NCBI GenBank assembly: GCA_963708025.1
Contig: CAVPSB010000015.1
Coordinates: forward strand, 160,001 to 224,000
Direction: 5' to 3'
From: an uncultured Candidatus Rokubacteria bacterium
GTDB taxonomy: Bacteria; Methylomirabilota; Methylomirabilia; Rokubacteriales; DASRDR01
Length of the DNA stretch: 64,000 bases
Below, in pieces: positions 31,143 to 51,389 of the stretch. How positions within the stretch are numbered: the stretch's first letter is position 1; each line of letters opens with the position of its first letter. The notes below the pieces were generated by a model, which ran no database searches, was not told the DNA's origin, and saw only the letters and a list, made by a program, of their open reading frames with translations. The position numbers and the translations under genes are program-made.

Positions 31143-33053
31143 GTGAGTGCGTGGCGGGTGGGCGGCGTGTCCGGCAGTTGTGGCCTCGTTCTCATGCTCC
31201 TGGCGGGATCGTTGTGGGCCCAGTCTCCCGGCGTGGGTGAGCCAGTCGAGTCGGGGGTCCGCTCGGAGCGCGTCCGTGATCTCCTGGCGCAGCGGATCCA
31301 GCGGCGCCCTGCCGAGGAGGAGCCGAAGCCGGAGCCGGCGGCGCCCGGGGCGCCCGGGGCTCCCGCCGCGCCGGGGGCGCCGGCCGAGGGTGGCCCACCC
31401 CTGCGCACCCCGGCCGATCCGCCCCTGGGAGTGGCCGGGCAGTCCGGGATCCCCCTGGTGAGCCAGACCACCTCGGACTTCCTGCCGCTTCCCGATCGCT
31501 GGCGGACGGGCTTCCCCCGCTGGGACCGCTACGGTCGCTCCTTCGATCTGCCCTACGCCGAGGGCAAGTGGTGGGACCCCTACACCCAGAGCGTGATCAA
31601 GGGGGACTACCCGATCTGGGGCCAGTACACCTTCTTCTCGCTCACCGCGATCAGCGACACGCTGATCGAGGCCCGCAAGCTCCCGACCCCGGCCGGCATC
31701 TCGCCCGCCCGGGCGAACCAGAACCCGTTCTTCGGCGAGGGCGAGCAGCTCTTCTGGAACCAGAACTTCATCCTGACCTTCGAGCTGTTCCACGGCCTGA
31801 CCGCCTTCCGGCCGCGCGACTGGGAGATCCGATTCACCCCCGTGATCCAGTTCAACTACCTGGACACGCGGGAGACGGGCGCGGTCAACGTCGACCCCGG
31901 CAAGAGCACCAGCCGGTTCGACACCGACGTGATCGGGATCCAGGAGGCGCTGGTCGAGTACCACATCGCCGACCTGTCGCCCTACTACGACTTCGTCTCG
32001 GTCCGGGCCGGCATCCAGCCGTTCCTCAGCGACTTCCGCGGCTTCCTCTTCGCCGACAACGAGCTGGGCGTCCGGTTCCTCGGCAACTACTTCGCGAACC
32101 GCCTCCAGTACAACGTGGCCTACTTCCACATGCTGGAGAAGGACACCAACAGCGGGTTGAACCGGCTGACCGCCCGGGACCAGAACGTCGTCATCGCCAA
32201 CCTCTACCGCCAGGACTTCATCTGGCCCGGCTACACCGCCCAGCTCAGCTTCCACTACAACAACGACAGAAGAGCACCCAGTTCGACGACAACGGCTTCA
32301 TCGTCCGACCGGCGGCCATCGGCACGATCCAGGAGCACGAGCTCGACGCCTACTACCTCGGCTGGACCGGCGACGGCCACATCGGGTGGCTGAACATCAC
32401 CCACCCGTTCTACCAGGTGCTCGGCCGCGACAGCCTCAACCAGATCGCCGGCCGCTCGGTCGACATCAACGCCCAGATGTTCGCCCTCGAGCTCTCGGCG
32501 GACCTCGACTGGCTGCGCCCGAAGGTCTCGTTCCTGTGGGCCTCGGGCGACCCCGATCCCCAGGACGGCACCGCCCGCGGCTTCGACACGATCTTCGACA
32601 ACCCGAACTTCGCCGGCGGGCCGTTCAGCTTCTGTCCGCCAGGGGATCGCGCTGACCGGCGCCCGGTGAACCTGGTCAATCGGAACAGCCTGGTGCCCGA
32701 CCTCCGCTCCAGCAAGGAGCAGGGGCAGGCGAACTTCGTCAACCCCGGCCTGTTCCTCTTCAACGTGGGCGTCGACGCCGCGGTCACCCCGAAGCTCAAG
32801 GCCCTGTTCAACGTCAACTACCTCCGCTTCCAGGATACCGAGCTCGCTCCGGGTGCTCCTCTTCCAGAACAAGATCCGCGACGACATCGGCTGGGACCTC
32901 AGCCTCGGGATCCAGTACCGGCCGTTCCTGAACGACAACATGATCGTCACGGCCGGCTTCGCGGGATTCATCCCCGGCGACGGGTTCAAGGACATCTACC
33001 AGAAGGACGACCTGCTCTACTCGGCGTTCGCCACCTTTACCGTCACGTACTGA
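31143..33053 (+). CDS. outer-membrane beta-barrel protein (frameshifts near 32270, 32635 and 32845)
   Basis: Signal peptide ..LLAGSLWA, Pro-rich linker, amphipathic strands (QEALVEYH, RAGIQPF, LGWTGDG, NVNYLRF), C-terminal FTVTY. Confidence 0.8.
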
Positions 33054-33158
33054 GAGACCGTGAGGGGACCGACCCCGACCGCGGGCGAGGGATGACCCAA
33101 GGGGGGGACCCGGGGGAGGAGCGCGCAGCGCCCCCCCGGCCCGACTGAGAGGAGCGCC

Positions 33159-36100
33159 ATGCTCAGCGCAGCGACTCGAGGTGGTCTGGGCCGCGCCGCC
33201 CTCGGCTGGGGGCTCTCGGCTGTACTCGTGGCATTCGTCATCGTCGCCTGTGCCCGGGCGCCGCGAGCGCCGTGCCGGTCGCCGAGATGGCGACCAAGGC
33301 CGGCGACCTGAAGAAGCAGACGGAGCAGGACGTGGCCAAGAAGAGCGCCGGCTGCCTGACCTGCCACACCCAGACCGACTCGCAGACCATGCACGAGTCG
33401 CGACGGTGAGCTCGGCTGCATCGACTGCCACGGCGGCGACGCCGGACCGACGGCGCCGGCCGGCACGAAGGCCGGGGACGCCACCTACGAGGCGCAGAAG
33501 AAGGCGGCGCACGTGCTGCCGCACGACACCCATCTCTTCGCGCACCTCGGCGAACCCCGAGCGCTCGGCCACCGCCTGGCTGAAGGAGCGCGGAGTTCGT
33601 CCGGTTCGTGAACCCCGGCGATCTGCGGGTGGCCCGGGTGACGTGCGGCCTCACCGGCTGCCACCCCACCGAGGTGGCGGCGGTCGAGAAGAGCATGATG
33701 ACCCACGGCGGCCATGCTGTGGGGCGCCGCGCTCTACAACAACGGCGCGTTCCCGATCAAGCATGCCGCGGTTCGGCGAGAGCTACGGACCCGACGGCAC
33801 GCCCCAGCGCGCTGCAGACCGTCCCGCCGCCGACCCCCGAGGAGATCGTCAAGAAGGGCGTGCTGCCCTTTCTCGACCCGCTGCCGCGCTTCGAGGTCGG
33901 CCAGCCGGGCAACATCCTGCGCGTCTTCGAGCGCGGCCAGCGCAAGCCCCTCGAGATCGGCCTCCCGATCGTCGACGAGGACCCGGCCGGCCGGCCAACC
34001 GGCTGAGCCACCGCGGGCTCGGCACCCTCAACCGCACCGACCCGGTCTTCCTCAGCCTGCAGAAGACGCGCCTGCTCGACCCGATCCTCTCGCTTCCTCG
34101 GCACCAACGACCACCCCGGCGACTACCGCTCGAGCGGCTGCACGCGCCTGCCACGTGGTCTACGCCAACGACCGCGATCGCCGGTCCACTCCGGCCCGTA
34201 CGCCGCAGTTCGGCAACCTGGGCCGGACGCCAGCGACCGATCCGACCATCCCGCAAGGACGAGTCCGGGCACCCGATCAAGCACACGTTCACGAACGCGA
34301 TCCCCACCAGCCAGTGCATCGTCTGCCACATCCACCCGGGCACCAACGTGTGACACGACGCTACCTCGGCTACACCTGGTGGGACAACGAGACCGACGGC
34401 GAGCGTGATGTACCCGGCCAAGGAGCGCAGCAGCTCACGCGCCGAGCAGGTCGCACGAGATCCGAGCGGCCAACCCCGAGGGCGCCGCCGCTGCGCGGGC
34501 TGTGGTCGGACGTCGACTTCCTCGCACAACGTGACGCGACCTCAACCCGCAAGCTCACGCGCACCCAGTTCGCCGACTTCCACGGCCACGGCTGGATCTT
34601 CCGCGCCGTCTACAAGCAGGACCGCAAGGGCAACCTGCTCGACGCCAAGGACGACAGGTCGTCGCCCCCGACGATCCCGACCAGCTTCAAGAAGGCCGTG
34701 CACCTGAAGGACATCCACCTCGAGAAGGGGATGCACTGCGTCGACTGCCACTTCGAGCAGGACGTGCACGGCAACGGCAAGCTCTACGGCGAGACGCGCA
34801 ACGCGATCGAGATCGACTGCGTGGACTGCCACGGCACGATCGACGAGCAGGGCCACGCTGCGACGTCGGGCCCGGCGGCGCCCGCCGGGCGGCACCGACC
34901 TCTCGACCGCTGCACGACGCCGTTCGGCCAGCGCCGCTTCTACTGGCGGGGCGACACGCTGATCCAGCGCTCGATGGTCGACCAAGGAGCTCGCAGTGGG
35001 AGGTCGTGCAGGTGCTCGACACCATCGACCCGCCTCGACTGGGCCCGGCCAACCCGAAGTACAGCGAGCGGTCGCGGCTGGCCAAGACGATGCGCAAGGA
35101 CGGCACGACCTGGGGCGCCGTGCCGGCCGAGAGGGCAAGGACCTGGCGCACGCCGACGCCAAGATGACCTGCTACACCTGCCACACGTCGTGGATGACGA
35201 GCTGCTTCGGCTGCCACCTGCCGATGCAGGCCAACGAGCGCGAAGCCGCTCCTGCACAACGAGGGCGACGAGCCGCGCAACTGGACGCCGTACAACTCCC
35301 AGGTGCTGCGCGACGACGTCTTCATGCTGGCGATCGACGGCACGGTCACCGGGCAACCGGATCGCGCCGGTCCGCTCCTCGAGCGCCGTCCTCGTCGGCT
35401 CGCAGAACGCCAACCGCGAGTGGGTCTACTCGCAGCAGCAGACCGGTCTCGGCCGAGGGCTTCAGCGGCCAGGCCTTCAACACGTCACGTTCCCCACACG
35501 GTGCGCGGCCGACCGAGACGCAAGCAGTGCACCGACTGCCACGTCTCGGCAGGCGAACGACAACAACGCCTGGATGGCGCAGCTCCTGCATGCAGGGCAC
35601 GAACTTCGTCAACTTCATCGGCCGCTACGTCTACGTGGCCGAGGGCAAGGCGCGGGCTCGAGGCGGTCGTCGTCACCGAGCGGGACGAGCCGCAGGCGGT
35701 GATCGGCAGCCACCTGCACGAGCTGGCCTACCCGACGAACTACCAGCAGCACGCGGCGCGCGGCAGCCGTCCTGCAGGAGGCCTACCACCACCGGGGCCG
35801 CGACGTCTCGACTGTTCGGCCGGCGACGAGGTGCTGTCCATCCAGCTCCGCGGCGAGTACCTCTACACCGCCAACGGGCCGGGCGGCTTCCGCGTCTACG
35901 ACGTCGCCAACATCGACAACAAGGGCTTCTCCGAGCGCATCGTGACCGCGCCGGTCTCGCCGCTCGGCCAGCGGCTCTACGTGAAGACCAAGTACGCGAC
36001 CGCGGTCGCGTCGCCCACCACGCTGGCGCGTCGACCCGACGCGGGCGCAGCGGCCGGAGAACGCAGGAGCAGCCGATCCACCCGCTCTACGCGCTACCTC

Positions 36101-37075
36101 TACGTCACCGACCGGGAGGAAGGGCTCGTGTCATCGGCATCCGCCGTCGAACCGCCGGCGCACGCTGCTCGACGGCGATCCGAACAACAACTTCCTCGAA
36201 GCGCGCCGTCGCCTTCAACCCCGACGGCGTGCTCGACGGCGCCGTCAACCTCACCATCGCCGGCACGCTACGCCTACGTCCTGCGCCAAGCGCGGCCTCG
36301 TCGTCGTCGACCTCGACGACCCGCTCCAGCCGACGGTCGTGGCCGAGGTCGGCGCGCCGGCGATCGTCGAGCCCGCGCGCCGTCGCCGTGCAGTTCCGCT
36401 ACGCCTTCGTCACCGACGGCGAGGGGCTGAAGGTCATCGACGTCACCGAGCCGACCGCGCCCCGGCCGGTGCCCGGCGCGACGGTGCCGCTCGCGGACGC
36501 GCACGGGATCTACGTCGCCCGCACCTACGCCTACGTCGCCGCCGGCGCCAAGGGCTGGTCGATCGTCGACGTCGAGCGAGCCGGAGCGCGCCGACGCTCG
36601 ACCAGATGTACAACGCCGACGGCGCGCATCAACGACGCGCGCGACGTGAAGGTCGGCATGACCAACGCCAGCGCTCTTCGCCTACGTCGCCGACGGCAAG
36701 AACGGCCTGCGCGTCGTCCAGCTCATCTCGCCGCGACGACAACGCCGAACTACACTCGGCTTCAGCCCGCGGCCGACGCCGCGGCTCATCGCCACCTACG
36801 AGACGCACGGGCCGGCGCTGGCGCTCTCCAAGGGCCTCGACCGCGACCGCGCCGTCGACGAGAGCGGCAACCAGATCGCCGTCTTCGGCCGGCGCGGCGC
36901 CCGCCCGTTCAACCGGGCCGAGATGGAGCGCCTGTACCTCCGCGACGGCAAGCTCTGGACGGTGAAGGACACGCCGCCCGGCGCGCCGCGAGAGATGAAG
37001 GGCGCGGAGCCGAAGAAGGAAGAGGAGCCCGCCCCGCAGGAGCGCCGGCCCCGCCGCGGCGCCCCCGGCGGCTAG
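33159..37075 (+). CDS. large multiheme cytochrome c (10 heme motifs) with C-terminal LVIVD-repeat beta-propeller; many frameshifts
   Basis: Heme motifs at 33353, 33417, 33644 (CX4CH), 34139, 34315, 34737, 34818, 35170, 35203, 35528; repeats such as [52 protein letters not shown]. Confidence 0.85.
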
Positions 37076-37138
37076 ATCCATCCGGGGGGTCTCGGAAGAC
37101 CCCCCGGATTCCCCCCCTCGGTTGCGCGGGCGAAGCCC

Positions 37139-37446: not shown

Positions 37447-39631
37447 TCAGCGCGAGGAGATGTCGGTGGCCGGGAGGCCTTCGCTGCGGGGCGGGCGGGG
37501 GGCCGGGACGACCGGGGCCGGCAGGTTCGGGTCCTCGATCTGCTTCTTGAGCTGGGGAGCCCGGCGCTTGAATTCCTCGTAGACGGACTGGGCCTCGGCC
37601 GGGTCCAGCACGATCCGCGGGGTGACGAGGATCATCAGCTCCGTCTTGATCGTCCCCTCTGTCGTGGCGCCGAAGAGATAGCCGAGGATCGGGATCCGGG
37701 ACAGGAACGGGATCCCCTGCCGGACCAGCGCCTTCCGCTCCTCGATGAGCCCGCCCAGGACCAGCGACTCGTTCTCGCCCACCACGACCGACGTCTCGGC
37801 CACCCGCTTGATGAACACCGGCGACTGGGTGGCGGTGACGTCGTTCGGGCGGACGTCGGAGACCTCCTGGCGGACGTCCAGCGCCACGAAGCGGTTCTCG
37901 CTGACCCGGGGCAACACGGTCAGGAGGATGCCGGTGTCCCGGTACTCGACGGTCGTCGTGATCACCGAGGAGGGCTGGACCGCGCCGACCACGCCGGTCG
38001 TCGGCTGCTGCTGGCTCGTGAGGATGGGAACGGAGCGGCCCACGTGGATCTGGGCGCGCTTGTTCTCCACGGCGAGCACGCGCGGGCTGGAGAGCACGTT
38101 GACGCGGTTCTCGGCGGCGAACGCCTGGAGCATCCCCAGGAAGTCCTTGCTCTGGAGCACGAAGAAGAACGTCGGGGGGAGCGGCACGATCCCCGGCACC
38201 CCGGTGTCGAGGCCGCTGCTGAGCGTGACATTCTCCCCCCCGATCTTGATGCCGCCCGAGCGGAGCGCCCACTCGATGCCGAGCGAGGTCGAGTCGTCGA
38301 GCGTGAACTCCGCCACCAGGATCTCGATGAGGACGCGCCGCGGCATCCGGTCGAGCCGCTGCAGGATCGGCTGGAGGACCGCCCAGCTCGGCGGCGTGGT
38401 GGTGATCAGGAGGGTATTGGTGGCCTCGTCCGCGATCACGCGGACGTCCTCGGCCGCCAGGTCGTCGCCCTCCGGGACCACGCCCGGCGGCGGCAGTCCT
38501 CCGGGCGGCGGCCCCCCTGGCGCGGGCTCGAACGGCATGCCCGGGGGCAGGGGGCCGGGGCGCGGGGCCGGGAGCTCGGGCCCCTCCCCGCCGGCGGAAG
38601 AGCCCGGTCAGGGTGGTGGCCAGCTCCTTGGCCCTCAGGTGCTCGACGCGGTAGATGAAGACACCGCGCGAGGGGGGCGACTGGGTGTCGAGCCGGGTCA
38701 CCAGGGCCTGGATGCGCTCCAGCACGGCCGGCGGACCCACGGCCAGGATGGTGTTGGTTCGGCCGTCGGCGAGTATCACGGCCCGACCGCCGGTCGGCTC
38801 CTGGAGGGCCGGCCCCGGCGGCGCTCCCTCCAGCCCCTCGGGGGCTCGCGGTACCGGGGGCGGGAGCGCTCGGCCGGGAGCGGCCGGCCCGCCCGCGACG
38901 AGCTGGGTGATGAGCGGGGCCAGGGTGGTGGCGTCCGCGAAGCGGAGCGGGAAGATCTGAAGCTGCTCCTGGGCGGTCGGCACGTCCAGCATGCGGATCA
39001 CCGACAGGTACCGGCGGAGCTTCTCGACGGAGTCGGTGATCACCAGGATGTTGGTGTCACGGTGCACGGACACCGCCGCCTCCCGGCTGATCAGCGGCAG
39101 CAGCACCCGGACCAGCTCGCCCGCCGATCCGTAGCGGAGCGGGATCAGCTGGGTGACGATCTCCTCGGGCCGCCGGCTCGGATCCGGCTCGGACCCCACC
39201 ACGACGGGGAGCCCCTGGGCCTGGGCGGCGGCGATCCGGATGATCTTGTAGAGGTCGCCGGCGCGGACCGCGGTCAGGCCGTGGGTTTCCAGGACCGTCA
39301 GGAGCATGTCGAACAGCGCGCGGCGCGGCACCCGGCCCTGGACGGTCACCTTGCGGCGGACCTCGGGGGCCAGAACGTAGTTGAACTCGATGGCCTGGGC
39401 GACGGCGTCGAGGACGACGTCCAGGTCGGCGTCCTGGAAGTTCAGGGTCACCAACTCGTCCTCGGTGGCGAGGCGGGCCGGCGCCGGCGCCTGGGGGAAC
39501 ACCGGGGTCAGGACGGCGCCCGGCAGGGCGAGGACGGTGAGGACGGCGAGGGACCAGCGAGCCAGGCGCGCGCGCCTCGCCGGCAGCCCCTCCCGCCGAC
39601 GGCGCCGGGGGGTCGTGCACCACACACTCAT
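37447..39631 (-). CDS. gspD: type II secretion secretin (frameshift(s) about 38540-38600)
   Basis: VTLNFQDADL N0 domain, N-domain repeats (DGRTNTIL, DEATNTLL), VLIEILVAE, VLSSPRV, GRSVPI, YRDTGILL.V.P, GIPFLSRIPILGYLF, TELMILVTPRI. Confidence 0.92.
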
Positions 39632-39685
39632 CGGGGAGTCGTTCCGGACCGCGGGCCGTCACCCGGCCCGCCATCCGACCGGGGC

Positions 39686-39715
39686 ACTCTACACTCGCCT
39701 CTCGCGGGCCGTCAA
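39686..39715 (-). promoter_or_regulatory. candidate sigma70 promoter for gspD
   Basis: TTGACG (39715-39710), 18 nt, TAGAGT (39691-39686). Confidence 0.55.
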
Positions 39716-39720
39716 GCCAC

Positions 39721-41234
39721 CGCATCGGATCAAAACTTCGGTTACCGAACGGAGGGGGCTCCATCAGAAGTTACGGTTACCAACTCCAGCCAGGAGGTGA
39801 CCGTGACGCGAGCCGGATTGCGGGAGTACGCCGCCGCGCAGCGGGAGCGCTATCTCGGCGCCCGGCGGGCCGACAAGCATCGGCTGCTGACCGAGGTGGT
39901 GACCGTCACCGGCCTGCACCGCAAGGCGGCCATCCGCCTGCTGCGGCGCCCCCCGCGCCCGCCCGGCGGCCGCCCCCGCTCGGGCCGCCCCCGCGTCTAC
40001 GGCCCCGCCGTGGCCGCCGCCGCGCAGCTCCTCTCCGAGGCCACCGGCCACATCGGCCCCCACCGCTGGCACCCCTTCCTCCCCGAGCTGCTCGATCGCC
40101 TGACCCGGAGCGGCGACCTGGTCGTCCCCCCGGAGGTCGACAAGCGCCTCCGCCAGGTCAGCCCCGCCACGCTGGCCCGCCTGCTGGCCCCGTTCCGGGC
40201 CACGCTCCCCGGGCGGGGGGCCACCACCACCCGCCCCGGGGCCTGGCTCAAGCATGAGATCCCCGTCCGCACCTTCGCCGAGTGGAGCGACGCCCAGCCC
40301 GGCTTCCTCGAACTCGACTTGGTCGCCCACTGTGGCCCGACCACGCGCGGCTTCTATCTCTGCACCCTCTGCGCCGTCGATGTCGCGACCAGCTGGGTCG
40401 AGCTCCAAGCCGTCTGGGGCAAGGGCCAGCTGCGGGTCGGCACCGCCATCCACCACGTCCGCCAGCGCCTGCCCATGCCCTTGCGCGGCCTGGACAGCGA
40501 CAACGGCTCCGAGTTCATCAATCACGACCTGTATGCCTGGTGCCAGCGCGAGGGCATCACCTTCACCCGCAGTCGTCCCTACCAGAAAAACGACAGCGCC
40601 CACGTCGAGCAGAAGAACGGCGCCATCGTCCGCCCCCTCATCGGCTATGATCGGTACGCCTCCCGCGCCGCCTATGCCCAGCTCGCCCGCGTCTACGAGC
40701 TCGCCCGGCTGCACATCAACTTCTTCCAGCCGGTCCAGAAGCTCGTGACCAAAGCGCGCCGCGGCCCGCGCGTGCATCGCGTGTACGACCGCGCCCAGAC
40801 CCCGTATCAGCGCCTGTGTGCCACGGGCGTCCTCCCGCCCCCGCGCCGGCAAGAGCTCGAGGCCGTGTATCAGCGGCTCAACCCCCTGCACCTCCGCCGG
40901 CAGCTCGAGGCCGCCCTGGATCGCCTCTGGCCCTTGGCCGTCCCGGCCCCGCCCGCGCCGGCCGCACCCCGGGAAAACGCCCCGGAAAGGGAATAGCCGG
41001 ATATGGCCTCGCGCCCAACTCGCGCTCCTACGGGCGCCCAGCGGCCCGCGCGCCTGACCCCGGGCCTGGCCAGCGGCCCCAGGCGCTCCCGGGGCGCGCC
41101 GCCCGCCCGGTCCGCCGGCACTCCCACGGCCTCACGCGCCGCCCTGGGCGGCGCCGCCACCCTGCGGCCCCGGGTAACCCTGACTTCTGATCTGACGGAT
41201 CACGGAGGGTAACCCTGACTTATGAGTGACCGCG
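39721..41234 (+). mobile_element. insertion sequence, 1514 bp, ISNCY-type (size and 5-bp TSD fit the ISLbi1-like group)
   Basis: GCCAC duplicated at 39716-39720 and 41235-41239; imperfect ends CGCATCGGATCA / rc CGCGGTCACTCA; two subterminal ...TCA.AAG..A.GGTTACC-type motifs at each end. Confidence 0.85.
39803..40996 (+). CDS. DDE transposase (integrase core)
   Basis: AGGAGG RBS; GLHRKAAIRLL; ELDLVAHCG; DSDNGSEFIN; SRPYQKNDSAHVEQKN; intact frame. Confidence 0.92.
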   Translation: MTRAGLREYAAAQRERYLGARRADKHRLLTEVVTVTGLHRKAAIRLLRRPPRPPGGRPRSGRPRVYGPAVAAAAQLLSEATGHIGPHRWHPFLPELLDRLTRSGDLVVPPEVDKRLRQVSPATLARLLAPFRATLPGRGATTTRPGAWLKHEIPVRTFAEWSDAQPGFLELDLVAHCGPTTRGFYLCTLCAVDVATSWVELQAVWGKGQLRVGTAIHHVRQRLPMPLRGLDSDNGSEFINHDLYAWCQREGITFTRSRPYQKNDSAHVEQKNGAIVRPLIGYDRYASRAAYAQLARVYELARLHINFFQPVQKLVTKARRGPRVHRVYDRAQTPYQRLCATGVLPPPRRQELEAVYQRLNPLHLRRQLEAALDRLWPLAVPAPPAPAAPRENAPERE

Positions 41235-41281: not shown

Positions 41282-41310
41282 TTGACCGGCTCATTCGCTG
41301 TCGCTAGGAT
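41282..41310 (+). promoter_or_regulatory. sigma70 promoter for the cytochrome/NuoEF/cNMP-FeS operon
   Basis: TTGACC, 17 nt, TAGGAT; AAGGAG RBS before ATG 41362. Confidence 0.65.
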
Positions 41311-41361
41311 GCTCACACCCTTGCTTGGCACTTCACCCCTGACCGTGAAGGAGTCGCGGCG

Positions 41362-42589
41362 ATGAGCAGGAGCCTCCCGGGCATCACGTCCCTCATCCTC
41401 GTTGCGGCGATGGCCGTCGTCATCGGAGCCGCCGTGCAGAGCGCGGAGGCGCAGCTGGCGATTTCGAAGGAGTTCAAGTACACCGGCACCGGCTCGTGCG
41501 CCGCCTCGAGCTGCCACGGCGCCAAGAAGCCGGCCGCCAAGCCGGGCGATCCCGACGACACCTACACCGTCTGGGCGACCAAGGACAAGCACAACAAGGC
41601 GTATACCACGCTCACCAAGAAGGAATCGGTCGCGATCGCCCAGAAGCTCAAGATCGCCAAGGCGACGGAGTCGGACAAGTGCACCGGCTGCCACGCGCTC
41701 CACATCACCAAGGAGATGCTGGCCCCGAAGGCGAAGTACGACGTCGCCGACGGGGTGAGCTGCGACTCCTGCCACGGCCCGGCCGAGAAGTGGCTCGAGG
41801 GGCACGACAAGGGCGAGAAGAACTGGCCGCACGCGAAGTCGGTGAGCATGGGGATGTACGACACCAAGGACGTGCTGAAGCGGGCCGAGCTCTGCGTCTC
41901 GTGCCACCTGTCGATCGAAGCCGAGATGGTGGCGGCCGGTCATCCGACGATGATCTTCGAGCTCGACAGCTTCAGCGCAGAACCAGCCCCCGCACTGGAA
42001 GGACCAGAAGGACTGGTTCGGCGCCCAGGCCTGGAGCACCGGTCAGGCGGTCGCCCTCCGGGAGTCGGCCCAGCAGCTCGCGACCCGGGCCAAGGGGAAC
42101 GCGCCTGAGGCGCTGATCAAGGAGAGCTTTGACCAGACCCGCGGCCACGCCATCTCGCTGCGGTCGGTCCTGGGCCAGGTGGCCGCCGACGCCGGCAAGA
42201 AGCTCGACGCCGAGATCGCCGCGATGGGCGACGGGAAGGACAAGGCCAAGGTGGCGGCCGCCGCGACCAACGTCGCCAAGCTCGGCGGCGACCTCTCCAA
42301 GCAGCTCTCGCAGACGAAGTTCAACAAGGACATCGTCTGGGCGACTCTCAAGGCGGCGGTGAGCGATCCCGAGCGGGCGACCTCGGCCGGGCTGCGCTCG
42401 GCCGAGCAGGTGGCCATGTCGGTGGACAGCCTCTTCCGCTCGGTCAACGCCGTGGCGAAGCCTCCCGAGGGGAAGGCCATCGACGCCGCGATCGGGAAGA
42501 TGTTCGACGAGCTGCCGAGCAAGCCGGCGGACTTCGACGCCAAGAAGTTCTCGGCCAACCTGCAGGCGATCGGCAAGAACATCAAGTAG
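41362..42589 (+). CDS. periplasmic tetraheme cytochrome c (c554-like) with helical C-terminal domain (frameshift near 41985)
   Basis: Signal peptide; YTGTGSCAASSCH, CTGCH, GVSCDSCHGP, CVSCH; AAGHP...FELD. Confidence 0.88.
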
Positions 42590-42605: not shown

Positions 42606-44355
42606 ATGGCGCAGCCTGGCGAGGTCATCGTCTCCGAGCTGCGGGAGATTCAGCACCGGTACGGCTATCTCCCGGTGGAAGAGCTCCGCGCGCTCTCCGC
42701 CCGCATCGCGGTGCCCGTCTACCAGCTCCACGGCGTCGCCAGCTTCTTCCCCCACTTCCGGCTGCACCCGCCGGCCTCGGTCGAGGTGCGGGTCTGCGCC
42801 GACATGTCGTGCCACCTCAACGGGGCCCGGCAGCTCCTCGGCGCCTTCCAGACCGAGGCCAACCGGATCTCCGACATGGACGTCCAGACCGTGTCCTGCC
42901 TGGGGCGGTGCGATCGGGCGCCGGCGGCGGAGATCGGCGAGCACATCCTCGAGTCCGTCTCCATCGAAGAGGTCCCCGACCTCGTCCTGTCCGCCGCCGA
43001 CGGCAAGATGGAGCCCCGGCCCCGGGTCGGCGCCCAGCCCACGGCTCTCCGCAGCGATCCCTACAGCGGCAGCCCGCGCTACGAGGCGGTCCAGCAGTTC
43101 CTGGGTCACGGCGACGTCGAGCGAGTGCTGGGGACCCTCAAGGCCGCCGGGCTGCGCGGCATGGGCGGGGCCGGCTTCCCGACCGGCGGACAAGTGGGAG
43201 CTCGTGCGCAGCGCGCCGGGCGACGACAAGTACATCGTCTGCAACGCCGACGAGAGCGAGCCCGGCACCATCAAGGACCGCTTCATCCTGGAGTCCCTGC
43301 CCCTATCTGCTCGTGGAGGGCATGATCGCTCGCCGGCCTGGTCACCGGCGCCCGAGCAGGGCATCGTCTACATCCGCCACGAGTACGAGCCAGATGCGAG
43401 GAAGCGCTCGAGCGCGCCATCCGCGAGGCGCGGCAGCAGGGCGTGCTCGGCCCCCGGGTCATGGGCTCGGACCGCACCTTCGAGCTCGAGACTCTTCGTC
43501 AGCCCCGGCGGCTACATCTGCGGCGAGGAGTCCGCGCTGCTCGAGGCGATGGAGGGCAAGCGGGCCGAGCCGCGCAACAAGCCGCCGTTCCCGGTCACCC
43601 ACGGCCTGTACGGCAAGCCGACCGTCATCAACAACGTCGAGACCCTGGCCTTCGTGCCGCTCATCCTGCTGCAGCGGCGCCGACTGGTTCAAGGCGCAGG
43701 GCGCAGAACGGCGCGGCAGCGGCCTCAAGTTCGTCGGCATCAGCGGCGCACGTGGCGCGGCCGGGCGTCTACGAGGTCGCCGATGGGCACGCACGGCCCG
43801 CGAGGTCATCTACGACCTCGCCGGCGGCATGCCGGAACGGGCGGCGCGCTGAAGGCCTGGGCCCCGTCGGGGCCGTCGTCGGGCTTCCTGCCGGCCTCGA
43901 TGATCGACTTGCCGCTCGACTTCGGACACGCTGGCCAAGGCCGGCTCGATGCTCGGCTCGGGCGCGGTGCGTCGTGATGGCCGAAGGCACGTGCATGCTC
44001 GACATGGCGCTCAACGCCGTACGCTTCTTCCGCAACGAGTCGTGCGGCAAGTGCGTGCCGTGCCGGGTCGGCTCCGCAGAAGATGGTCGAGCTGCTCGAC
44101 CCGGGTCGACGCGGGGCCAGGCCGGACCGGGCGACATGGACACGCATCGACGACCTCGACCAGGCGCTGCGGCTCACCTCGATCTGCGGCCTGGGCCAGG
44201 TCGTGCCGAAGCCGATGCGCTCGGTCGATCCAGCACTTCCGCGAGGAGGTGGACGACGCACCTCCTCCGGCAACGCTGCCCCGCGGGCGTGTGCTCTGGA
44301 TCAGGCGGCGGGCTCCGATCGGGACTTGACGGCGACCATCATGAGGCGGCTCTGA
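42606..44355 (+). CDS. NuoE-NuoF fusion (NAD(H)/FMN diaphorase module); frameshifted
   Basis: NuoE-like CADMSCH and CLGRCD; NuoF GLRGMGGAGFPTG, NADESEPG, YICGEESALL, PTVINNVET, ESCGKCVPCR, SICGLG, CPAGVC. Confidence 0.88.
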
Positions 44356-46586
44356 TGGCGCCGGCCACGTCGAGGCGACCATCGACGGGAAGTCGGTCGA
44401 GCGTGCCGGCCGGCACCACGATCTTCGACGCCGCCCGCGCGGCTCGAGCATCGCCATCCCGACCCTCTGCCACCCGCAGCACGCAGACGCCGGTCGGCGT
44501 CTGCCGCGTCTGCGTGGTCGAGGTGAAGAACGCGCGCGTGCTGCCGGCGGCCTGCGTCCGGCCGGTCGAAGCCGGGCATGGAGGTCATGACCGCGCGCCG
44601 AGGCGTGCAGCGAGCGCGCCGGACGCTGGCTCGAGCTGCTGCTGGCCGACCACCCCGTCCCCTGCGCCCGGCAGGCGAAGACGCGGCGACTGCGAGCTGG
44701 AGAACCTGGCCGCGGGCTGCCGACCTGGCGCCGGCCGCGCTTCGCGAGGCCGCCCGTCGCCGCGTGGGCGCGACGACTCGCCCCCCATCATCGCCGTCGA
44801 CCACACCGCCTGCATCCTGTGCGACCGCTGCATCCGCGGCTGCACGCGAGGTGCAGGCACAACTTCGTCATCGGCCGCGCCGGCAAGGGCTACGCGGCGG
44901 GGATCGCCTTCGACACCGACGTCCCCATGGGGAAGTCGACCTGCGTGTCGCTGCGGCGAGTGCATGGTCTCGTGCCCGACCGGCGCGCTCACCCTCAAGA
45001 CCGAGGCGGCGTCGTCGCCGGCCTCGACCCGGCGGCCAGCTGGTCGGCGAGACGCTGACGTCGGCCGACGATCCGGGACGTGCCGATCTTGCGAGGGGTG
45101 TCGGGCAACGTTCCTGGACCTGAACCGCGGCGCCGGTGGTCGGCGGCACGTTCCAGCCGGGCGAGGTCATCTGCCGGGAGGGCGAGTTCGGCTCCACCGC
45201 GTTCTACGTCCTGAGGGGCAAGGTCGAGGTCTCCATCCCGACCCCGATGGCCCACTGCGACGAGCCACGCCGGGGCTCCACGGGCGGCTGGCGGGGCTGC
45301 GCTCCACAAGATGACCCGAGCTCCGGTGCACAGCGGGACGGAGCCCAGGCGGAGTCGGCGACGCCCACCGGCTATCATCCCGATCGACGCCTCCGTCGAC
45401 CTCGCCTACGACAAGCCGGTCGCCCAGCTCGGGCCCGGCGAGCTGTTCGGCGAGATGACCTGCCTCATCTTCTATCCGCGCTCGGCCACCGTGCGGGCGG
45501 TCGAGGACGACCGTCGTCCTCGAGATGCTGCGCAACGTGCTGCAGATCCTGCAGCGGAACAAGACGTTCCGGCCGAGCTCGAGCGCGCGCTATCGCGAGC
45601 GCGCGCTCGACACGCACCTGCGCAGCGTCCCGATCCTGGCCGGCCTCACCGACGAGTTCATCGACCGACCTGCGCGACAGCGTCGAGCTGGTCCGCTACG
45701 AGCCCGGGCGAGGTGATCTGCCGGCAGGGCGACGCCGGCCGACAGCTTCTATCTGATCCGGATCGGCTTCGTGAAGGTGACGCCAGACGTTCCCCGGCGG
45801 CGAGCTGGTCGCTGCCGTACCTGGCCCGCGGCAACTACTTCGGCGAGATCGGTCTGCTGGGCGGCGGCGTCCGGACCGCCACCTGCACCGCGCTCGACCA
45901 CGTCGAGGTGGTCCGCATCAGCGGCCGACGACTTCCGACGCATGCTCGAGCGCTTCCCCGACGATCCGCCGCGCGCCTCGGCGGACGTGGCCCGAGCGCC
46001 GCACGCGAGGAGAACGCAGCGGCAGGCCTCACGGCTCGTCGACGTCGCCGCTCGAGGACTTCCTCGGCCAGGGGCTGATGGAGGCGCAGAACCTGCTGCT
46101 CATCGACCTCGACCGCTGCACGCGCTGCGACGCCTGCGTGCGGGCCTGCGCCGACGCGCACGACGGCGTCACGCGGCTGGTCCGCGACGGGCTGCGCTAC
46201 GACAAGTACCTGGTGGCGACCTCGTGCCGCTCGTGCCGCGACCCGCTGTGCATGGTCGGCTGCCCGGTCGGCTCGATCCGGCGCACGGACTCGCTCGAGA
46301 TCATCATCGAGGACTGGTGCATCGGCTGCGGCTGTGCGCCGAGCACTGCCCGTACGGCAACATCAACCTGCACCCGTTCAAGGTCACCGCCGACGCCCGA
46401 GCGCCGGCGGCAAGAAGGCGGTGGTCCGCGAAAGGCGACCGCGCTGCGACCTGTGCCGCGAACTGAACAGAGCCGAGCTGCGTGTACGCGTGCCCGCACG
46501 ACGCCGCCATGCGGGTCGAGCCCCGCGAGTTCTTCGCGACCGGGACGTCCCAGGTCCGGGGCGCCCCGCCGTCCATCCGGTCATGA
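44355..46586 (+). CDS. NuoG/HydA-like N-terminal FeS domain + two cNMP-binding domains + C-terminal 4Fe-4S polyferredoxin; frameshifted
   Basis: IPTLCH, GVCRVCVVE, CILCDRCIRGC, CGECMVSCP; LFGEMTCLIFYPRSATVRA and YFGEIGLLGGGVRTATC; CTRCDACVRAC, CRSCRDPLCMVGCP, CIGCG, CDLC..CVYACP; TGATG/ATGA couplings. Confidence 0.82.
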
Positions 46587-47506
46587 TCATCGATCGCGGT
46601 CACCTCCGGTGGGTGGCGATCTGCCTCGGCATCCTCCTCGCTTCCACCGCGGTCTACATCCCGTACCACGTCCGCTCGCTCAACGGGCCGTCGGGCGGCA
46701 GCCTGATCGGGCTCCTCTTCGGCTTCATCGGCTACGGGCTCATGCTCTTCGCCGGCGCGCTCGGCGTGCGGACCCGGCGCGCGACCTGGCGCTTCGGTCG
46801 CGCGGAGACCTGGCTCAAGGGCCACGTCTGGCTGGCCCTGCTGGCCTATCCGCTGATCTACTTCCACGCCGGCTTCGCGTTCGGCGGGCCGCTGACCGTG
46901 GCGCTCATGATCCTGTTCACCATCGTGACCGTCAGCGGCCTCGTCGGCGTGGTGCTCCAGGGGATCCTCCCCCGCATGATGACCGAGCGGGTCCCGCTGG
47001 AGACGATCTTCGAGCAGGTGGACAACGTGCTGGCCCAGATCCGGGGGGAGGCCGACCACGTGGTCAAGGCGGTCGCCGATCCGGAGCAGGCGTCGGCGGA
47101 CGAGGCGGCGGCCACGGTCGGCCGCCGGCCGCCCCCGTCGGCTCGGCGGGCGCAGGTGCGGGCGCAGATCGGAACCACGTCGGCCCCGGCCGAGGAGGCC
47201 CAGGCCCTCAAGGAGTTCTACGAGAACGAGGTGCGCCCGTACCTGTACGACAAGGCGGGACGGACCGCGTCGCTCAACAGTCCGTCGAAGGCGGCGGTGG
47301 TCTTCGCCCAGCTCCGGACGCGGGTGCCGGACGAGCTGCACCACGTCGTGGACGACCTCCAGGCCATCTGCGAAGAGCGCCGCCAGCTCAAGGTGCAGAC
47401 CGGACTCCACTACTGGCTGCACGCGTGGCTCCTGGTCCACGTGCCGCTGTCGCTGGCGCTGCTGCTACTGTCCGCCGCGCACGCCGTCCTGGCGTTGCGC
47501 TACTAG
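46583..47506 (+). CDS. integral membrane protein with paired His residues (ferric-reductase/cytochrome b-like)
   Basis: TM helices with WLKGHVWL..YFHAG and WLLVHVPLS..AAHAV. Confidence 0.75.
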   Translation: MIIDRGHLRWVAICLGILLASTAVYIPYHVRSLNGPSGGSLIGLLFGFIGYGLMLFAGALGVRTRRATWRFGRAETWLKGHVWLALLAYPLIYFHAGFAFGGPLTVALMILFTIVTVSGLVGVVLQGILPRMMTERVPLETIFEQVDNVLAQIRGEADHVVKAVADPEQASADEAAATVGRRPPPSARRAQVRAQIGTTSAPAEEAQALKEFYENEVRPYLYDKAGRTASLNSPSKAAVVFAQLRTRVPDELHHVVDDLQAICEERRQLKVQTGLHYWLHAWLLVHVPLSLALLLLSAAHAVLALRY

Positions 47507-47515
47507 AGGCACTTC

Positions 47516-49073
47516 GTGGCGCGGGAGCGAACGACCAAGGGGCTGGCCAAGCGGATCGAGCTGACCTACTACCAGCACCTGCATCCCTTCCGGCGCCTGT
47601 GGCGGATTCTCTGCATCGCCCTGGTGTCGGTCGCCGCGGTGTGGCTCATCGTGATGGCGGTCATGGGGGATCAGCGGATCTACACGAGCGGTCCGGTGGC
47701 GACGGCTCACCGGATGTTCAACCTCGACTGCGAACGCTGTCACGTTCGACCGGCCGACGCCGGCGGCCCCGGTGGCCAAGGCCGACGGCGCGGCGCCGGC
47801 GGCGCCCGTCATCCCGGTCTCGACGACGCGGCACCCTGGCGGCTTCTTCCGCCGGGTCAGCGACGGCGCCTGCTTCAGCTGTCACGATGCCCCCGACCAC
47901 CACGCCAACGCGGCAGTGTCGCTGCGGTGCGCCGAGTGCCACCTCGAGCACAAGGTGGAGACCACGCTGGCCCGGATGTCGGACCGGCACTGCGTCCTCT
48001 GCCACGCCGACCTGAAGACCAAGAGCGGGACCACCGAGTACGAGCGCCAGGTCGTCAGCCTCGCCCGGCATCCGGAGTTCGCGGTCTTGCGGAAGAACGT
48101 CAAGGACGCGACCCAGATCAAGCTGAACCACGAGACCCACCAGAAGCCCGACTTGCCGGCCGGCGGCGGGAAGCGCGTGACGCTCGGCTGCGTGAGCTGC
48201 CACGTGCAGGACGACGCCGGGAAGTACATGAAGCCGATCTCCTTCGACCTGCACTGCAAGCAATGCCACCCGCTGGAGGCCAGCGCCGACGTCGTCGTGC
48301 CCCACCAGCGGCCCGAGATCATCCGGGGCTTCCTGCTCAGCCGCTCCGCCCGAGGCGGCGGGGCCGCGGCCAGCCCGGCGGCGGCGCCCGGCGCCGAGAA
48401 GCCGGCCGACAAGCCGGCCGAAGAGGAGGCCCCGAAGGGCCGCCGGCGGGGAACCGGCTCATCCGCGTTGCCGGAGGCGCTCGTGCGGCTCGTGGGCTGG
48501 GTCCAGGAGGCGGTCGGGACCACCGAGCGCCCGCCGATCCAGCTCGTCCAGCGGCAGCGCGGCGGGGGCGCGCCGGAGGCGCCGGCGGCGCCCTCCGGAG
48601 CGGCCCCGGCCGGAGCGGCGCCTGCCGCAGCGGCCCCGGCCGCGGGTGGCGGGGGTGGCGGGCTGGCGGGGGTTGTCCAGCTGGAGAAAGGCTTGTACGA
48701 GGGCAGGTCGGCGGTCTGTCCCTACTGCCACATGATCGAGAAGGCCGATCCGCTGCCCCGCATCGTGCCGCCGAAGATCCCCGTGCGCTGGTTGCCGCGG
48801 AGCTCGTTCGACCATCGAGCGCACCGGCCGCTGGCCTGCCTGGCCTGCCACCCGGACGCCAAGAAGAGCACGGACACGGCCGACGTGTTGTTGTCGAAGG
48901 TGGCAGTCTGTCAGGAGTGCCACCGGGAAGGCGGCGGGGCCCGGGCGGGCTGCGTGGAGTGCCACCTCTATCATGACCGGTCCAAAGAGCGGTCGCCGGA
49001 CGGCCCGCACACGGTGCCTCAGTTCGCCGTCACGGCCGGACGTCCGACCGCCGCGCCAGCGACGAAACCCTGA
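47516..49073 (+). CDS. membrane-anchored decaheme cytochrome c3-family protein (frameshift near 47770)
   Basis: N-terminal TM; CERCH, CFSCH, CAECH, CVLCH, CVSCH, CKQCH, CPYCH, CLACH, CQECH, CVECH; c3-like FDHRAH and LNHETH. Confidence 0.9.
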
Positions 49074-49181: not shown

Positions 49182-50660
49182 ATGGGCACGCGAGACGTCT
49201 CCCGAATCGGTACGGGTGTCCTGATCGCCGTCGCGCTCCTCGGGTCCGCCTCCCGGGTCGGGGCCGTCCCGCTGACCGCCGACGAAGTCCAGCTCATCGT
49301 CAGCACGGCGGCCGCCTCGATCGACGCCACCACGGCGGTCATCGCGGTGACCGACCGCTCGGGCAACCCGCTCGCCGTGTTCCGGAAGATCAACGGGAAC
49401 GCAGGGGCCGCTGACACCGCGGTGGGTCTGGCCCGGAGCGCCGCGTTCTTCGCCAACGACCAGGCCCCGCTCTCCTCGCGGACCGTGCGCTTCATCACCG
49501 AGATCCACTTCCCGCCGGGGGTCGCCGGCACGCCCAACGGCGGGCAGTACGGCATCGAGAACACGAACCGGGGCTGCACGCTGAGCAACAACTTCAACCC
49601 CGGCAAGGCGGTCCCACCGTCCCGGTCGCTCAGCGGAGGCACCGGTCCGGGCATCATCACCGGCAAGCCCGACGTGTTCGACTCGAATCCCAACGCGGTG
49701 AACCCGGGTGGTGTCCCGGTCTACAAGGACAACCAGGTCGCGGGCGGAGTCGGCGTGACCGGCGTCTCCGCCGCGGAGGCCGAGTTCGCGGCCTTCAGCG
49801 GCGGCTTCGGGAACGGAAACCCCCGGTTCTCGCCGACCTTTGGCTCGCCGGGTGTCGTCTTCATCGACGGCGTCGCCCTGCCGTTCGTGAACCAGCGGAC
49901 CCGACCGGCCGGCAGTTCCCCTGGCAGCTTCGTCGGTGACTTCCTCCTGGGGCCGCAAGGGAGCCCGAACGCCGGCGTGCCGGACGGCTATCTGGTCGGT
50001 CCCGCCGGGAGCGCCGAGCTGAGCGCGGCGGAGGTCGACGGCATCGTGCGGCGGGCCGAGGCCCAGGCCAACAGCACCCGCGCCGCGATCCGGCTGCCTC
50101 TCGGCAGGACGACCCGGATGGTGATCTCCGTCTCGGACCTCCAGGGCAACCTGCTCGCGATCTTCCGGATGCCCGACGCGACGGTTTTCAGCATCGACGT
50201 CTCCGCGACCAAGGCCCGGAACATGGTCTACTTCCCGAGCACCCGGCTCGACCCGGCCGACCTACCCGGTGTCCCGCCCGGGACCGCCCTGACCGCCCGG
50301 ACCATCAACTTCGGCACTCAGCCCCTGTACCCGCCCGGCATCGATGCCGGCGGCCCCGGCCCCTTCTTCAACCTGTTCGTCCGGGACACGGCCCGTCCCT
50401 GCACGCAGGGCAACGACCAGCAGAACCGGGGGAACCAGAGCGGGATCGTCTTCTTCGCCGGCTCGGCCCCCCTGTACCGGAGCGGGGTGCTGATCGGCGG
50501 GCTCGGGGTGAGCGGCGACGGCGTCGAGCAAGACGAGGTCGTGACCGACGCTGGGTCACGTGGATTCGAGCCGCCCGACAACATCCGGGCCGACAACATC
50601 TTCATCCGCGGGGTCCGGCTCCCGTACTTCCGGTTCAACCGGAACCCGACCGCGCGCTGA
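49182..50660 (+). CDS. secreted protein with two GlcG/HbpS-like heme-binding domains
   Basis: Signal peptide; AVTDRSGNPL...PGGVPVYK...GGVGVTG and SVSDLQGNLL...GSAPLYR..IGGLGVSGDGVEQD. Confidence 0.85.
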   Translation: MGTRDVSRIGTGVLIAVALLGSASRVGAVPLTADEVQLIVSTAAASIDATTAVIAVTDRSGNPLAVFRKINGNAGAADTAVGLARSAAFFANDQAPLSSRTVRFITEIHFPPGVAGTPNGGQYGIENTNRGCTLSNNFNPGKAVPPSRSLSGGTGPGIITGKPDVFDSNPNAVNPGGVPVYKDNQVAGGVGVTGVSAAEAEFAAFSGGFGNGNPRFSPTFGSPGVVFIDGVALPFVNQRTRPAGSSPGSFVGDFLLGPQGSPNAGVPDGYLVGPAGSAELSAAEVDGIVRRAEAQANSTRAAIRLPLGRTTRMVISVSDLQGNLLAIFRMPDATVFSIDVSATKARNMVYFPSTRLDPADLPGVPPGTALTARTINFGTQPLYPPGIDAGGPGPFFNLFVRDTARPCTQGNDQQNRGNQSGIVFFAGSAPLYRSGVLIGGLGVSGDGVEQDEVVTDAGSRGFEPPDNIRADNIFIRGVRLPYFRFNRNPTAR

Positions 50661-51182: not shown

Positions 51183-51389
51183 CCTCCCGGGTCCACCGCC
51201 GTCCGCGACTCTCCCCGATTCGCCGAGCCGGGCCGTTCTCCTCGCCGCCCCTCTGGACGTACTCGCTGAGGTATCGTCGTCTCCTCGCCCGGGGACACGC
51301 GATGGTGGACAATGTCCAGGCCGGGTGGCGCGAGGCGGTGGTTGTATGCTGGAGGGGGAACCCCCCATTCAGGAGGCCCTCGAGCGACA

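Follow-up and report, generated by a model that had tools for sequence, protein, structure and literature searches.

Does a gene whose conserved pieces lie scattered over three reading frames still specify a working protein, and if so, what would that protein do? The question is raised by positions 44355..46586 of a 64,000-nt stretch (hereafter the window) from an uncultured Candidatus Rokubacteria bacterium (assembly GCA_963708025.1, contig CAVPSB010000015.1). A preliminary description, made from the letters of the window without database searches, had read these positions as a single open reading frame (ORF) for a NuoG/HydA-like subunit whose catalytic domain is replaced by two cyclic nucleotide monophosphate (cNMP)-binding domains and a polyferredoxin. 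The single ORF does not exist in the assembled sequence, where the ORF listing shows pieces in three frames (43443..45314, 45311..46078 and 46078..48015). The stretch is nevertheless most likely a copy of a widespread, uncharacterised iron-sulphur (Fe-S) protein that is intact in the living organism. In the explanation that accounts best for the whole, to which we assign a probability of roughly 55%, the gene would encode an NADH-fed Fe-S carrier with a cNMP-switched export of electrons to cytochromes, and its breaks in the window would be consensus errors.

Relatives encode a fused Fe-S and cNMP-domain protein in single genes

A search of 31 related genomes with a 255-amino-acid (aa) fragment from the middle of the region yielded three strong matches (G003, G025 and G027) in stop-free open frames (804, 766 and 749 aa), each holding one gene of the full architecture. 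In the relatives, one ORF of ∼715–740 aa encodes, in this order, predicted [2Fe-2S] and two [4Fe-4S] sites of the NuoG/HoxU/HydA N-terminal type, tandem cNMP domains, and a ferredoxin domain for four [4Fe-4S] clusters. The homologs are single genes and are not split, which removes a doubt voiced in the preliminary description that a corrected sequence might fall apart into separate genes.

In the 736-aa protein of G003 (P0001), Pfam places Fer2_4 at residues 6–81 (63.1 bits, cut-off 22.8), a ferredoxin dicluster at 147–211 (Fer4_9, 56.6 bits), cNMP_binding (PF00027) in three stretches over the two domains (131.6 bits for the whole protein, cut-off 27.5), and further dicluster matches at 573–715. 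The match to NADH-G_4Fe-4S_3 (PF10588) at 89–126 stays under its cut-off (17.1 bits against 27). Neither a hydrogenase (H-cluster) domain nor a molybdenum/tungsten bis(pyranopterin guanine dinucleotide) (Mo/W-bisPGD) molybdopterin domain was found in P0001 by Pfam, in agreement with what had been said of the window copy. NCBIfam models score below their cut-offs (NuoG 113.6 versus 470, HoxU 161.8 versus 333, FeFe_hydrog_A6 196.7 versus 765) and indicate a partial likeness to group A6 [FeFe] hydrogenase, HoxU and NuoG in the N-terminal part and to HydN/DmsB in the C-terminal part. Moreover, residues 5–217 match HydA1 (7q4v), FdsA (6tg9) and the 75-kDa subunits of complex I with E-values of 1e-43 to 1e-25. 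Judged by these Pfam, NCBIfam and PDB sequence matches, the replacement of a catalytic domain by two cNMP domains and a polyferredoxin is right for the family.

Column counts over the aligned relatives show which ligands are kept. The Cys of the [2Fe-2S] set (40/51/54/68) are present in 50–52 of 55–56 sequences, and those of the two CxxCxxCxxxC motifs (152/155/158/162 and 195/198/201/205) in 52–53 of 54–62. The canonical motif of a His-ligated [4Fe-4S] cluster is HxxxCxxCxxxxxC; only H100, C104 and C113 are left of it here (HxxxC-x8-C), the middle Cys is gone, and the remaining Cys occur in 39/58 and 39/54 sequences. The N-terminal motif set had been called typical beforehand, and this stands for the [2Fe-2S] Cys and the two CxxCxxCxxxC motifs and not for the degenerate His(Cys)3 site, because of which an internal electron path cannot simply be transferred from complex I. 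At the other end, 15 of the 16 Cys of the ferredoxin domain are invariant in 72/72 sequences and the last, C694, is found in 65/72.

Both phosphate-binding cassettes (PBCs) of the cNMP domains follow the canonical G-E...R-[ST]-A pattern, with G362 in 72/72, E363 in 71/72 and R372 in 65/72 sequences for domain A, and G491 in 72/72, E492 in 65/72 and R501 in 57/72 for domain B. The Glu/Arg pairs are kept in both domains by 41 of the 50 NuoG-fused members and by 14 of the 22 without the N-terminal module, so the cassettes seen in the window proved to be conserved in homologs. Domain A contains a long variable insertion with a conserved IPIDAxVDL motif, and ∼35 residues lie between the last helix of the tandem sensor and the ferredoxin domain.

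The window copy encodes the same protein in broken form. In a three-frame translation of 44355–46586 the conserved peptides switch frame every 30–160 bases, and the cassette motifs stand where they had been noted (FGE...RSA at 45446–45487, FGE...RTA at 45839–45880), as do the four Cys groups downstream (Table 1). Pfam detects Fer2_4 and Fer4 in one frame and cNMP_binding in the two others (58.7 and 22.4 bits), the higher score coming from the fragment 45311–46075 alone. A frameshift-aware protein-to-DNA alignment with the intact P0001 requires 28 frame changes, 22 of which skip one base and 6 two; after this correction 535 of 731 residues are identical, no in-frame stop remains, and 35 out of 35 checked Fe-S ligand and PBC residues are encoded. 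Because the ATG at 44355 does not share a frame with the conserved residues that come next, there must be at least one further break at the gene start.

The best 120 proteins from a collection of 5.8 billion are 63–83% identical to the query, and all but one measure 713–742 aa and cover 97–100% of it; the remaining one, with 554 aa and 75% coverage, is named as a partial record. Their names are generic throughout, namely 'cyclic nucleotide-binding domain-containing protein' or 'CRP-like cAMP-binding protein/Fe-S-cluster-containing dehydrogenase component'. A relative is encoded by 545 of the 599 candidate stretches from species genomes, and the 80 loci that we kept belong mostly to Acidobacteriota (Terriglobia, Acidoferrales), with a few from Rokuibacteriota/Methylomirabilota. 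Within the window's own phylum, 34/251 genomes have a match at E <= 1e-60, and a second operon copy in the window genome was not detected by tblastn. The fused architecture is real, widespread, uncharacterised and partly named in print.

Clustering at 50% gave 1404 representatives at E <= 1e-30, many of which match only part of the protein. Many are forms of 500–560 aa without the NuoG-like module, in which Pfam recognises cNMP and Fer4 domains. One chain of 1483 aa (P0179) joins NuoE, NuoF, the NuoG-like module, cNMP and Fer4 domains in what amounts to a Rosetta-stone fusion. A protein of 1058 aa (P0187) has the cNMP/Fe-S architecture followed by a C-terminal NUDIX domain.

Conserved operon partners suggest a route from NADH to multihaem cytochromes

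Neighbouring genes were counted at the 80 loci, where most misses fall at contig ends. A nuoE-nuoF fusion lies upstream in 79/80 loci and a gene for a ∼300-aa membrane protein downstream in equally many; the latter is followed by a multihaem (decahaem) cytochrome in 75/80, and a c554-like cytochrome gene stands upstream in 67/80. At locus L043 the genes outside this module are unrelated housekeeping genes. Intact NuoE-NuoF homologs (L011, L061) combine 2Fe-2S_thioredx, Complex1_51K, SLBB and NADH_4Fe-4S, and the window protein, once corrected, is identical to its homolog at 421 of 557 positions.

In the membrane protein W77-x3-H81-x13-H95, W282-x3-H286-x13-H300 and S118-G-x-x-G122 are invariant, and a predicted loop of 140 residues faces the cytoplasm. 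It has no Pfam or NCBIfam match, its neighbour cluster in the Atlas is auto-named 'ferric reductase like transmembrane component' (score 0.97), and in the window its ATG overlaps the stop of the Fe-S gene (ATGA). Ten CxxCH motifs are present in the decahaem cytochromes of the window, L061 and L043, and the c554-like gene encodes three to four CxxCH plus one CxxxxCH.

Taken together, these partners suggest how the module may work. NADH would be oxidised at the NuoF flavin, and electrons would pass through N3 to the [2Fe-2S] and two [4Fe-4S] clusters of the N-terminal module and on to the four C-terminal clusters. From these they would enter the membrane protein, whose two b-haems would carry them over to the periplasmic decahaem and other multihaem cytochromes on the far side of the membrane, from which they could reach a large decahaem/propeller protein and its putative outer-membrane partner, encoded farther upstream. 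Export in this direction would be favoured by the inside-negative potential; protons would stay inside, the quinone pool would be bypassed and the membrane potential dissipated. Because it would bypass the quinone pool and drain the membrane potential, such a route should need tight control.

The tandem sensor is a candidate for this control. Helix movements driven by cNMP in other proteins act at the end of the last helix of the sensor, and binding of cAMP or cGMP could here change the position of the C-terminal relay with respect to its N-terminal counterpart or the membrane partner and so turn the flow on or off. A regulatory role is made more plausible by the presence nearby of NuoEF, the two-haem-b protein, the decahaem cytochrome and sometimes a CHASE2 class III cyclase, and cNMP gating of electron flow is, on the strength of the motifs, plausible. 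If the sensor domains work as their sequence suggests, a cyclic nucleotide would control electron flow at the carrier protein and not by transcription or phosphorylation. The more specific idea of a ligand-gated 'electron valve', in which cAMP or cGMP moves the four-cluster relay in and out of electron-transfer distance and thereby opens and closes a quinone-independent NADH route common in soil Acidobacteriota and Rokubacteria-type bacteria, is a tentative proposal with the odds somewhat against it.

Several observations speak against this mechanism. In 9/50 fused and 8/22 unfused members at least one cassette lacks the Glu/Arg pair, and in the unfused protein of L097 the cassette Arg is replaced in both cNMP domains; because of such losses cNMP binding cannot be universal in the wider family. 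An intramolecular path through the degenerate His site is uncertain. The CHASE2 cyclase lies within 8 kb in 11/80 loci, ten of them acidobacterial with two arrangements and one Rokubacteria-type (L011) with a third, and it is adjacent in none of the other 69/80 loci nor in the window. Its adjacency is in any case weak evidence, since the window genome has dozens of class III cyclase matches; tblastn with two CHASE2 cyclases places such domains at >40 positions in it, a large cyclic-nucleotide signalling repertoire. Finally, we infer cNMP binding, cluster content, complex formation and the direction of flow from sequence.

The best-surviving alternative, which we nonetheless consider unlikely, is that the cNMP-type domains do not sense cyclic nucleotides and serve as a structural spacer or dimerisation module, or respond to another ligand or to redox state, so that there would be no gating by a second messenger. 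Folds of the CRP/FNR type bind other ligands elsewhere, such as haem in CooA and 2-oxoglutarate in NtcA. Loss of the cassette Arg in some members and the lack of an adjacent cyclase in most loci fit this possibility, and the Cys kept in or beside the cassettes (C366 in 65/72 and C505 in 59/72 sequences) could hint at redox sensing. Most members, however, have canonical cassettes in both domains; the nearest relatives of known structure are genuine cAMP/cGMP binders whose domains form the same tandem; and the cyclase neighbours, few as they are, occur in three separate arrangements.

The module could also run inward, with periplasmic or extracellular donors such as Fe(II) feeding the reduction of NAD+, and NuoEF-type modules are indeed reversible in other enzymes. 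We rate this direction as quite unlikely. Inward flow would have to oppose the inside-negative membrane potential to reach the very low potential of NAD+/NADH, as bioenergetic reasoning suggests, and the conserved five-gene module shows no subunit for energy coupling. In favour of it, related PCC4 clusters have been proposed as Fe(II)-oxidation conduits in the portions consulted of He et al. 2017 (PMC5566968).

The module seems to couple cytoplasmic NADH directly to multihaem cytochromes of the extracellular type. Members of the family are plentiful in Acidobacteriota from soil and peat, so that the module could matter for the way in which uncultured soil bacteria discharge reducing power to iron or humic substances.

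The frame breaks are very probably errors of the assembly

Alignments of the five core genes (c554-like, nuoEF, Fe-S gene, membrane protein and decahaem cytochrome) reveal 49 events, every one of a single base, and 47 of them fall into one patch of 3.3 kb. The c554-like gene has 1, the first part of nuoEF (42606–43185) 0, the remainder (43185–44258) 19, the Fe-S gene 28, the 0.9-kb membrane gene (46583–47506) 0 and the decahaem gene 1, so that the patch has clean edges, one of them sharp inside nuoEF. Farther upstream, ∼50 changes lie in the gene of the large cytochrome (33.2–37.0 kb) and ∼4 in the adjoining outer-membrane gene. The window thus contains two sharply bounded patches with >1% single-base indels, ∼80% of them insertions, in otherwise clean sequence; among the events of both patches there are no larger indels and no stops. 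A tracker that follows the phase of third-position G+C content (GC3) agrees with this picture, as all five 1-kb bins of the window with >=8 frame switches fall in the two patches.

This distribution indicates that the breaks are consensus errors of a long-read-type assembly and not biology, which we regard as very probable. Neutral decay, if uniform, could not have concentrated 97 events in two patches and left 2 in 4.4 kb of the same island. The kind of error can be narrowed down by six extra bases that public contigs place exactly: none extends a homopolymer run and at most one doubles a single neighbouring base, so that the errors look like random single-base insertions. Contigs of run X1 (short only) differ from the window at 0 positions in the flanks, and two of their pieces inside the patch show 6 and 9 gaps.

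Other assemblies point the same way. Among the few-contig assemblies of the phylum that hold the gene, 4/6 are broken by single-base, mostly +1, events, namely the window genome itself (G000) and G160, G161 and G190 with 4, 4 and 7 events (orthologs L092, L093 and L094), and the ortholog is unbroken in G159 and G162. None of the 18 assemblies with >=130 contigs had it split into pieces. The family is thus systematically mis-called in few-contig assemblies. Genome-wide, 412/8141 1-kb bins of G000 reach >=8 frame switches, compared to 1/60 in short-read relatives, and the assembly probably holds many more kilobase patches of indel errors. In the two patches of the window, gene calls are unreliable because of the >1% single-base indels, and experimental work should start from intact orthologs. 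Examples of flagged bins are C29:1001-10000, C35:60001-65000 and C16:364001-367000, and the flagged bins could include non-coding or low-GC3 DNA.

A few points run counter to an artefact. The X1 pieces inside the patch also carry 12 and 5 substitutions and may for this reason stem from another strain; they support consensus error and do not decide for it. In 8/18 many-contig assemblies one stop is listed inside the match, and in the two that were inspected (G025 and G027) the frame is open and the listed stop is the gene end. Equating few contigs with long reads is something that we infer. Both dense patches lie in one and the same island, and an IS481-like ORF sits between its halves, as a decaying island might show.

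These last two observations would also fit a true pseudogene in an island undergoing frameshift decay after a disruption, for example by the transposase-like insertion at 37.7–41.0 kb. Only 2/21 genomes searched in the window's family carry the gene (G000 and G003), which argues that it is dispensable. Decay is nevertheless very unlikely. Neutral decay should be even, yet 97 of ∼103 events are in the two patches and the 4.4 kb of neighbouring island genes (the start of nuoEF, the membrane protein, the decahaem and the c554-like gene) carry 2. Natural indel spectra are unlike the all-single-base, mostly-insertion pattern, from which larger indels and stops are moreover absent. In comparison with the G003 proteins, identity is not lower inside the patches (0.73–0.78) than outside (0.69–0.72); identity ratios are not linear with divergence, and a small excess divergence inside the patches is explicable by the residues beside the breaks. 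Similar breaks in three other few-contig assemblies, with none of the 18 many-contig assemblies split, also disfavour it.

Two further candidates were rejected. Programmed frameshifting and four-base decoding do not account for 28 sites that have no motif in common, mix +1 and −1 and adjoin a clean membrane gene, and relatives have one-frame orthologs. Sequencing error of the homopolymer type is at odds with the exactly placed extra bases, which do not lengthen runs. Cross-mapping onto any conserved gene is not supported as a general rule, because rpoB of the window genome is intact.

The module is a fused variant of described Fe-S gene clusters

Two systems described in part of the literature resemble the module. 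In the ptdABCDEFG cluster, the Fe-S protein PtdE is followed by the ferric-reductase-like transmembrane PtdF and the periplasmic decahaem PtdG, with the tetrahaem PtdD nearby, and its authors call its function completely unknown, as given in the excerpted text of the preprint (bioRxiv 10.1101/2023.11.21.568154). The order in the window, c554-like multihaem protein, Fe-S/cNMP protein, two-haem-b membrane protein and decahaem cytochrome, is like that around PtdE as far as this text describes it. By the same text the two differ in their input, which is a NuoE-NuoF fusion in the window and the FAD/NAD(P) oxidoreductase PtdC in ptd, and in the additional NuoG/HydA-like N-terminal module of the window protein. 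The outer partners also differ: the window has a decahaem/LVIVD propeller protein where ptd has the pentahaem PtdA with a beta-sandwich, and PtdB is a porin, whereas the putative outer-membrane protein of the window matched no porin family. As far as the excerpt goes, the hosts of ptd are marine lineages; those of the window type are soil Acidobacteriota and Rokubacteria-type bacteria.

In PCC4 subgroup II, according to the passages drawn on (PMC5566968), a pfam13247 Fe-S gene immediately precedes the gene of an inner-membrane protein of ∼300 aa, which has five helices, two WX3HX13H motifs and, on helix 4, SGXXG; the neighbours encode a porin and multihaem cytochromes with 4, 5 and 10 haems. 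The membrane protein of the window carries exactly the motifs given there. The unfused relatives P0217 and P0238 pass the cut-off of 26.2 bits for PF13247 (Fer4_11) with 33.2 and 28.5 bits, as does the L097 protein with 31.7, whereas P0001 itself stays below it at 20.1. In contrast to the window module, the main text of PMC5566968 has 0 occurrences of 'cyclic nucleotide' and of 'cNMP', the passages drawn on mention no NADH modules, and the model presented there sends electrons inward to quinone.

From the shared motifs and gene order, the module is therefore an NADH-fed, NuoG-fused variant of the uncharacterised PtdE/PCC4 kind of Fe-S gene, the likeness resting on description and gene order as far as the consulted text of both sources gives them; what sets it apart are the NuoEF input, the NuoG-like fusion and the outer cytochrome. 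A literature search for the fused, NADH-fed form found no paper on it, and the ptd preprint contains a single mention of 'cyclic nucleotide-binding'.

The individual parts have better-known counterparts. With HydA of the bifurcating [FeFe] hydrogenase (7q4v), FdsA (6tg9), HoxU and NuoG, the protein has in common the motif sets for one [2Fe-2S] and two [4Fe-4S] clusters, and like them it is partnered with subunits of the NuoE/NuoF type; it differs from them in lacking a catalytic domain, in its degenerate His(Cys)3 site and in scoring far under the family cut-offs. To the PKA regulatory subunit and PKG (3of1, 3shr, 1rgs) it can be aligned in one contiguous stretch that spans cassette A, the connecting helices and domain B, with G-E...R-[ST]-A in both domains. 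Unlike in these proteins, the effector would be a fused ferredoxin domain and not a kinase, domain A has its long variable insertion, and ligand binding is predicted.

NOX and MsrQ with its cytosolic reductase move cytoplasmic reducing power outward via b-haems, and the module differs from them in that its input would be a complex-I-type NADH unit acting through about eight Fe-S clusters. Proteins with ferric-reductase domains hold two b-haems on HX13H helices, as stated in the portions consulted of PMC5566968. In Shewanella, as far as the sources consulted report, cAMP-CRP governs anaerobic respiratory electron routes through transcription, whereas here the electron carrier itself would be the target of the cNMP signal.

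The wider cytochrome island

The features of the window are collected in Table 1. Homologs of the large cytochrome and of the outer-membrane gene flank the module in many acidobacterial and Rokubacteria-type loci. Comparison with related loci by tblastx identified the large-cytochrome gene; in six-frame pieces of 32.8–37.1 kb, Pfam finds only weak matches to LVIVD and cytochrome c3. That its putative partner is a beta-barrel is read from the C-terminal aromatic ending of the homolog and not from a family match.

Table 1. Coordinates of the Fe-S/cNMP gene, its domains and neighbouring features in the window, with the evidence for each
Feature	Position	Strand	Details	Evidence
Fe-S gene: NuoG/HydA-like Fe-S N-terminus, two cNMP domains, four-cluster ferredoxin	44355..46586	+	at least 28 single-base frame changes	
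N-terminal Fe-S module	44363..44993	+	[2Fe-2S] Cys set; degenerate His site 44651-44693; two CxxCxxCxxxC 44796-44993	Pfam on P0001, column counts
cNMP-binding domain A (predicted)	45077..45560	+	PBC 45446-45499 (FGE...RSA)	Pfam, PBC column counts
cNMP-binding domain B (predicted)	45609..45998	+	PBC 45839-45892 (FGE...RTA)	PBC column counts, alignment to 3of1/3shr
C-terminal four-cluster ferredoxin domain	46096..46520	+	16 Cys in four groups	Cys conservation, NCBIfam partial matches of HydN/DmsB types
Frameshift-dense patch	43185..46466	.	47 single-base indels in 3.3 kb (19 nuoEF, 28 Fe-S gene), sharp edges	frameshift-aware alignments
Cytochrome c554-like multihaem protein	41308..42586	+	3 CxxCH + 1 CxxxxCH; one frame change at ∼41977	
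NuoE-NuoF fusion	42606..44298	+	thioredoxin-like 2Fe-2S, flavin mononucleotide (FMN)/NADH site, N3 4Fe-4S; 19 frame changes	Pfam pieces
Inner-membrane protein (two-haem-b, ferric-reductase-like)	46583..47506	+	307 aa, intact; five hydrophobic helices, two WX3HX13H, SGXXG	motif conservation
Membrane-anchored decahaem cytochrome c	47516..49073	+	1 + 9 CxxCH; one frame change near 47747	
Large decahaem + LVIVD/beta-propeller protein	33067..37081	+	∼50 frame changes (40 skip one base, 10 skip two); second dense patch	926/1308 identical to L062 homolog
Putative outer-membrane beta-barrel protein paired with large cytochrome	31167..33081	+	∼4 frame changes	359/615 identical to L062 homolog

Between the halves of the island lies an ORF of 1083 aa (37745–40996), of which only residues 796–979 resemble an IS481-family transposase (39.6 bits versus 224; Pfam rve 31.6 versus 32.6). 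No convincing element ends were found among inverted repeats around it, and its length may be an artefact of high GC content, with a shorter gene inside.

Unfused relatives occur in other surroundings. At L097 (3511-10385) and L098, genes for an MtrA-like multihaem cytochrome, an MtrB/PioB porin and a monohaem cytochrome are followed by the unfused cNMP/Fe-S protein and then by a homolog of the two-haem-b membrane protein. The L097 Fe-S protein is 40% identical to residues 229–718 of P0001, and the membrane homolog shows 26% identity (E 1e-21).

Downstream of the decahaem gene in the window are a gene for a 492-aa protein with an HbpS-like domain (49182–50660) and an intact LigD of 861 aa with phosphoesterase, ligase and primase-polymerase parts (51312–53897). 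Upstream of the c554-like gene, by ∼90–140 bases, two exact copies of GGGTAACCCTGACTT are found at 41172–41186 and 41207–41221, 35 bases apart, where 0.02 would be expected by chance; these repeats could serve the module as an operator or promoter element.

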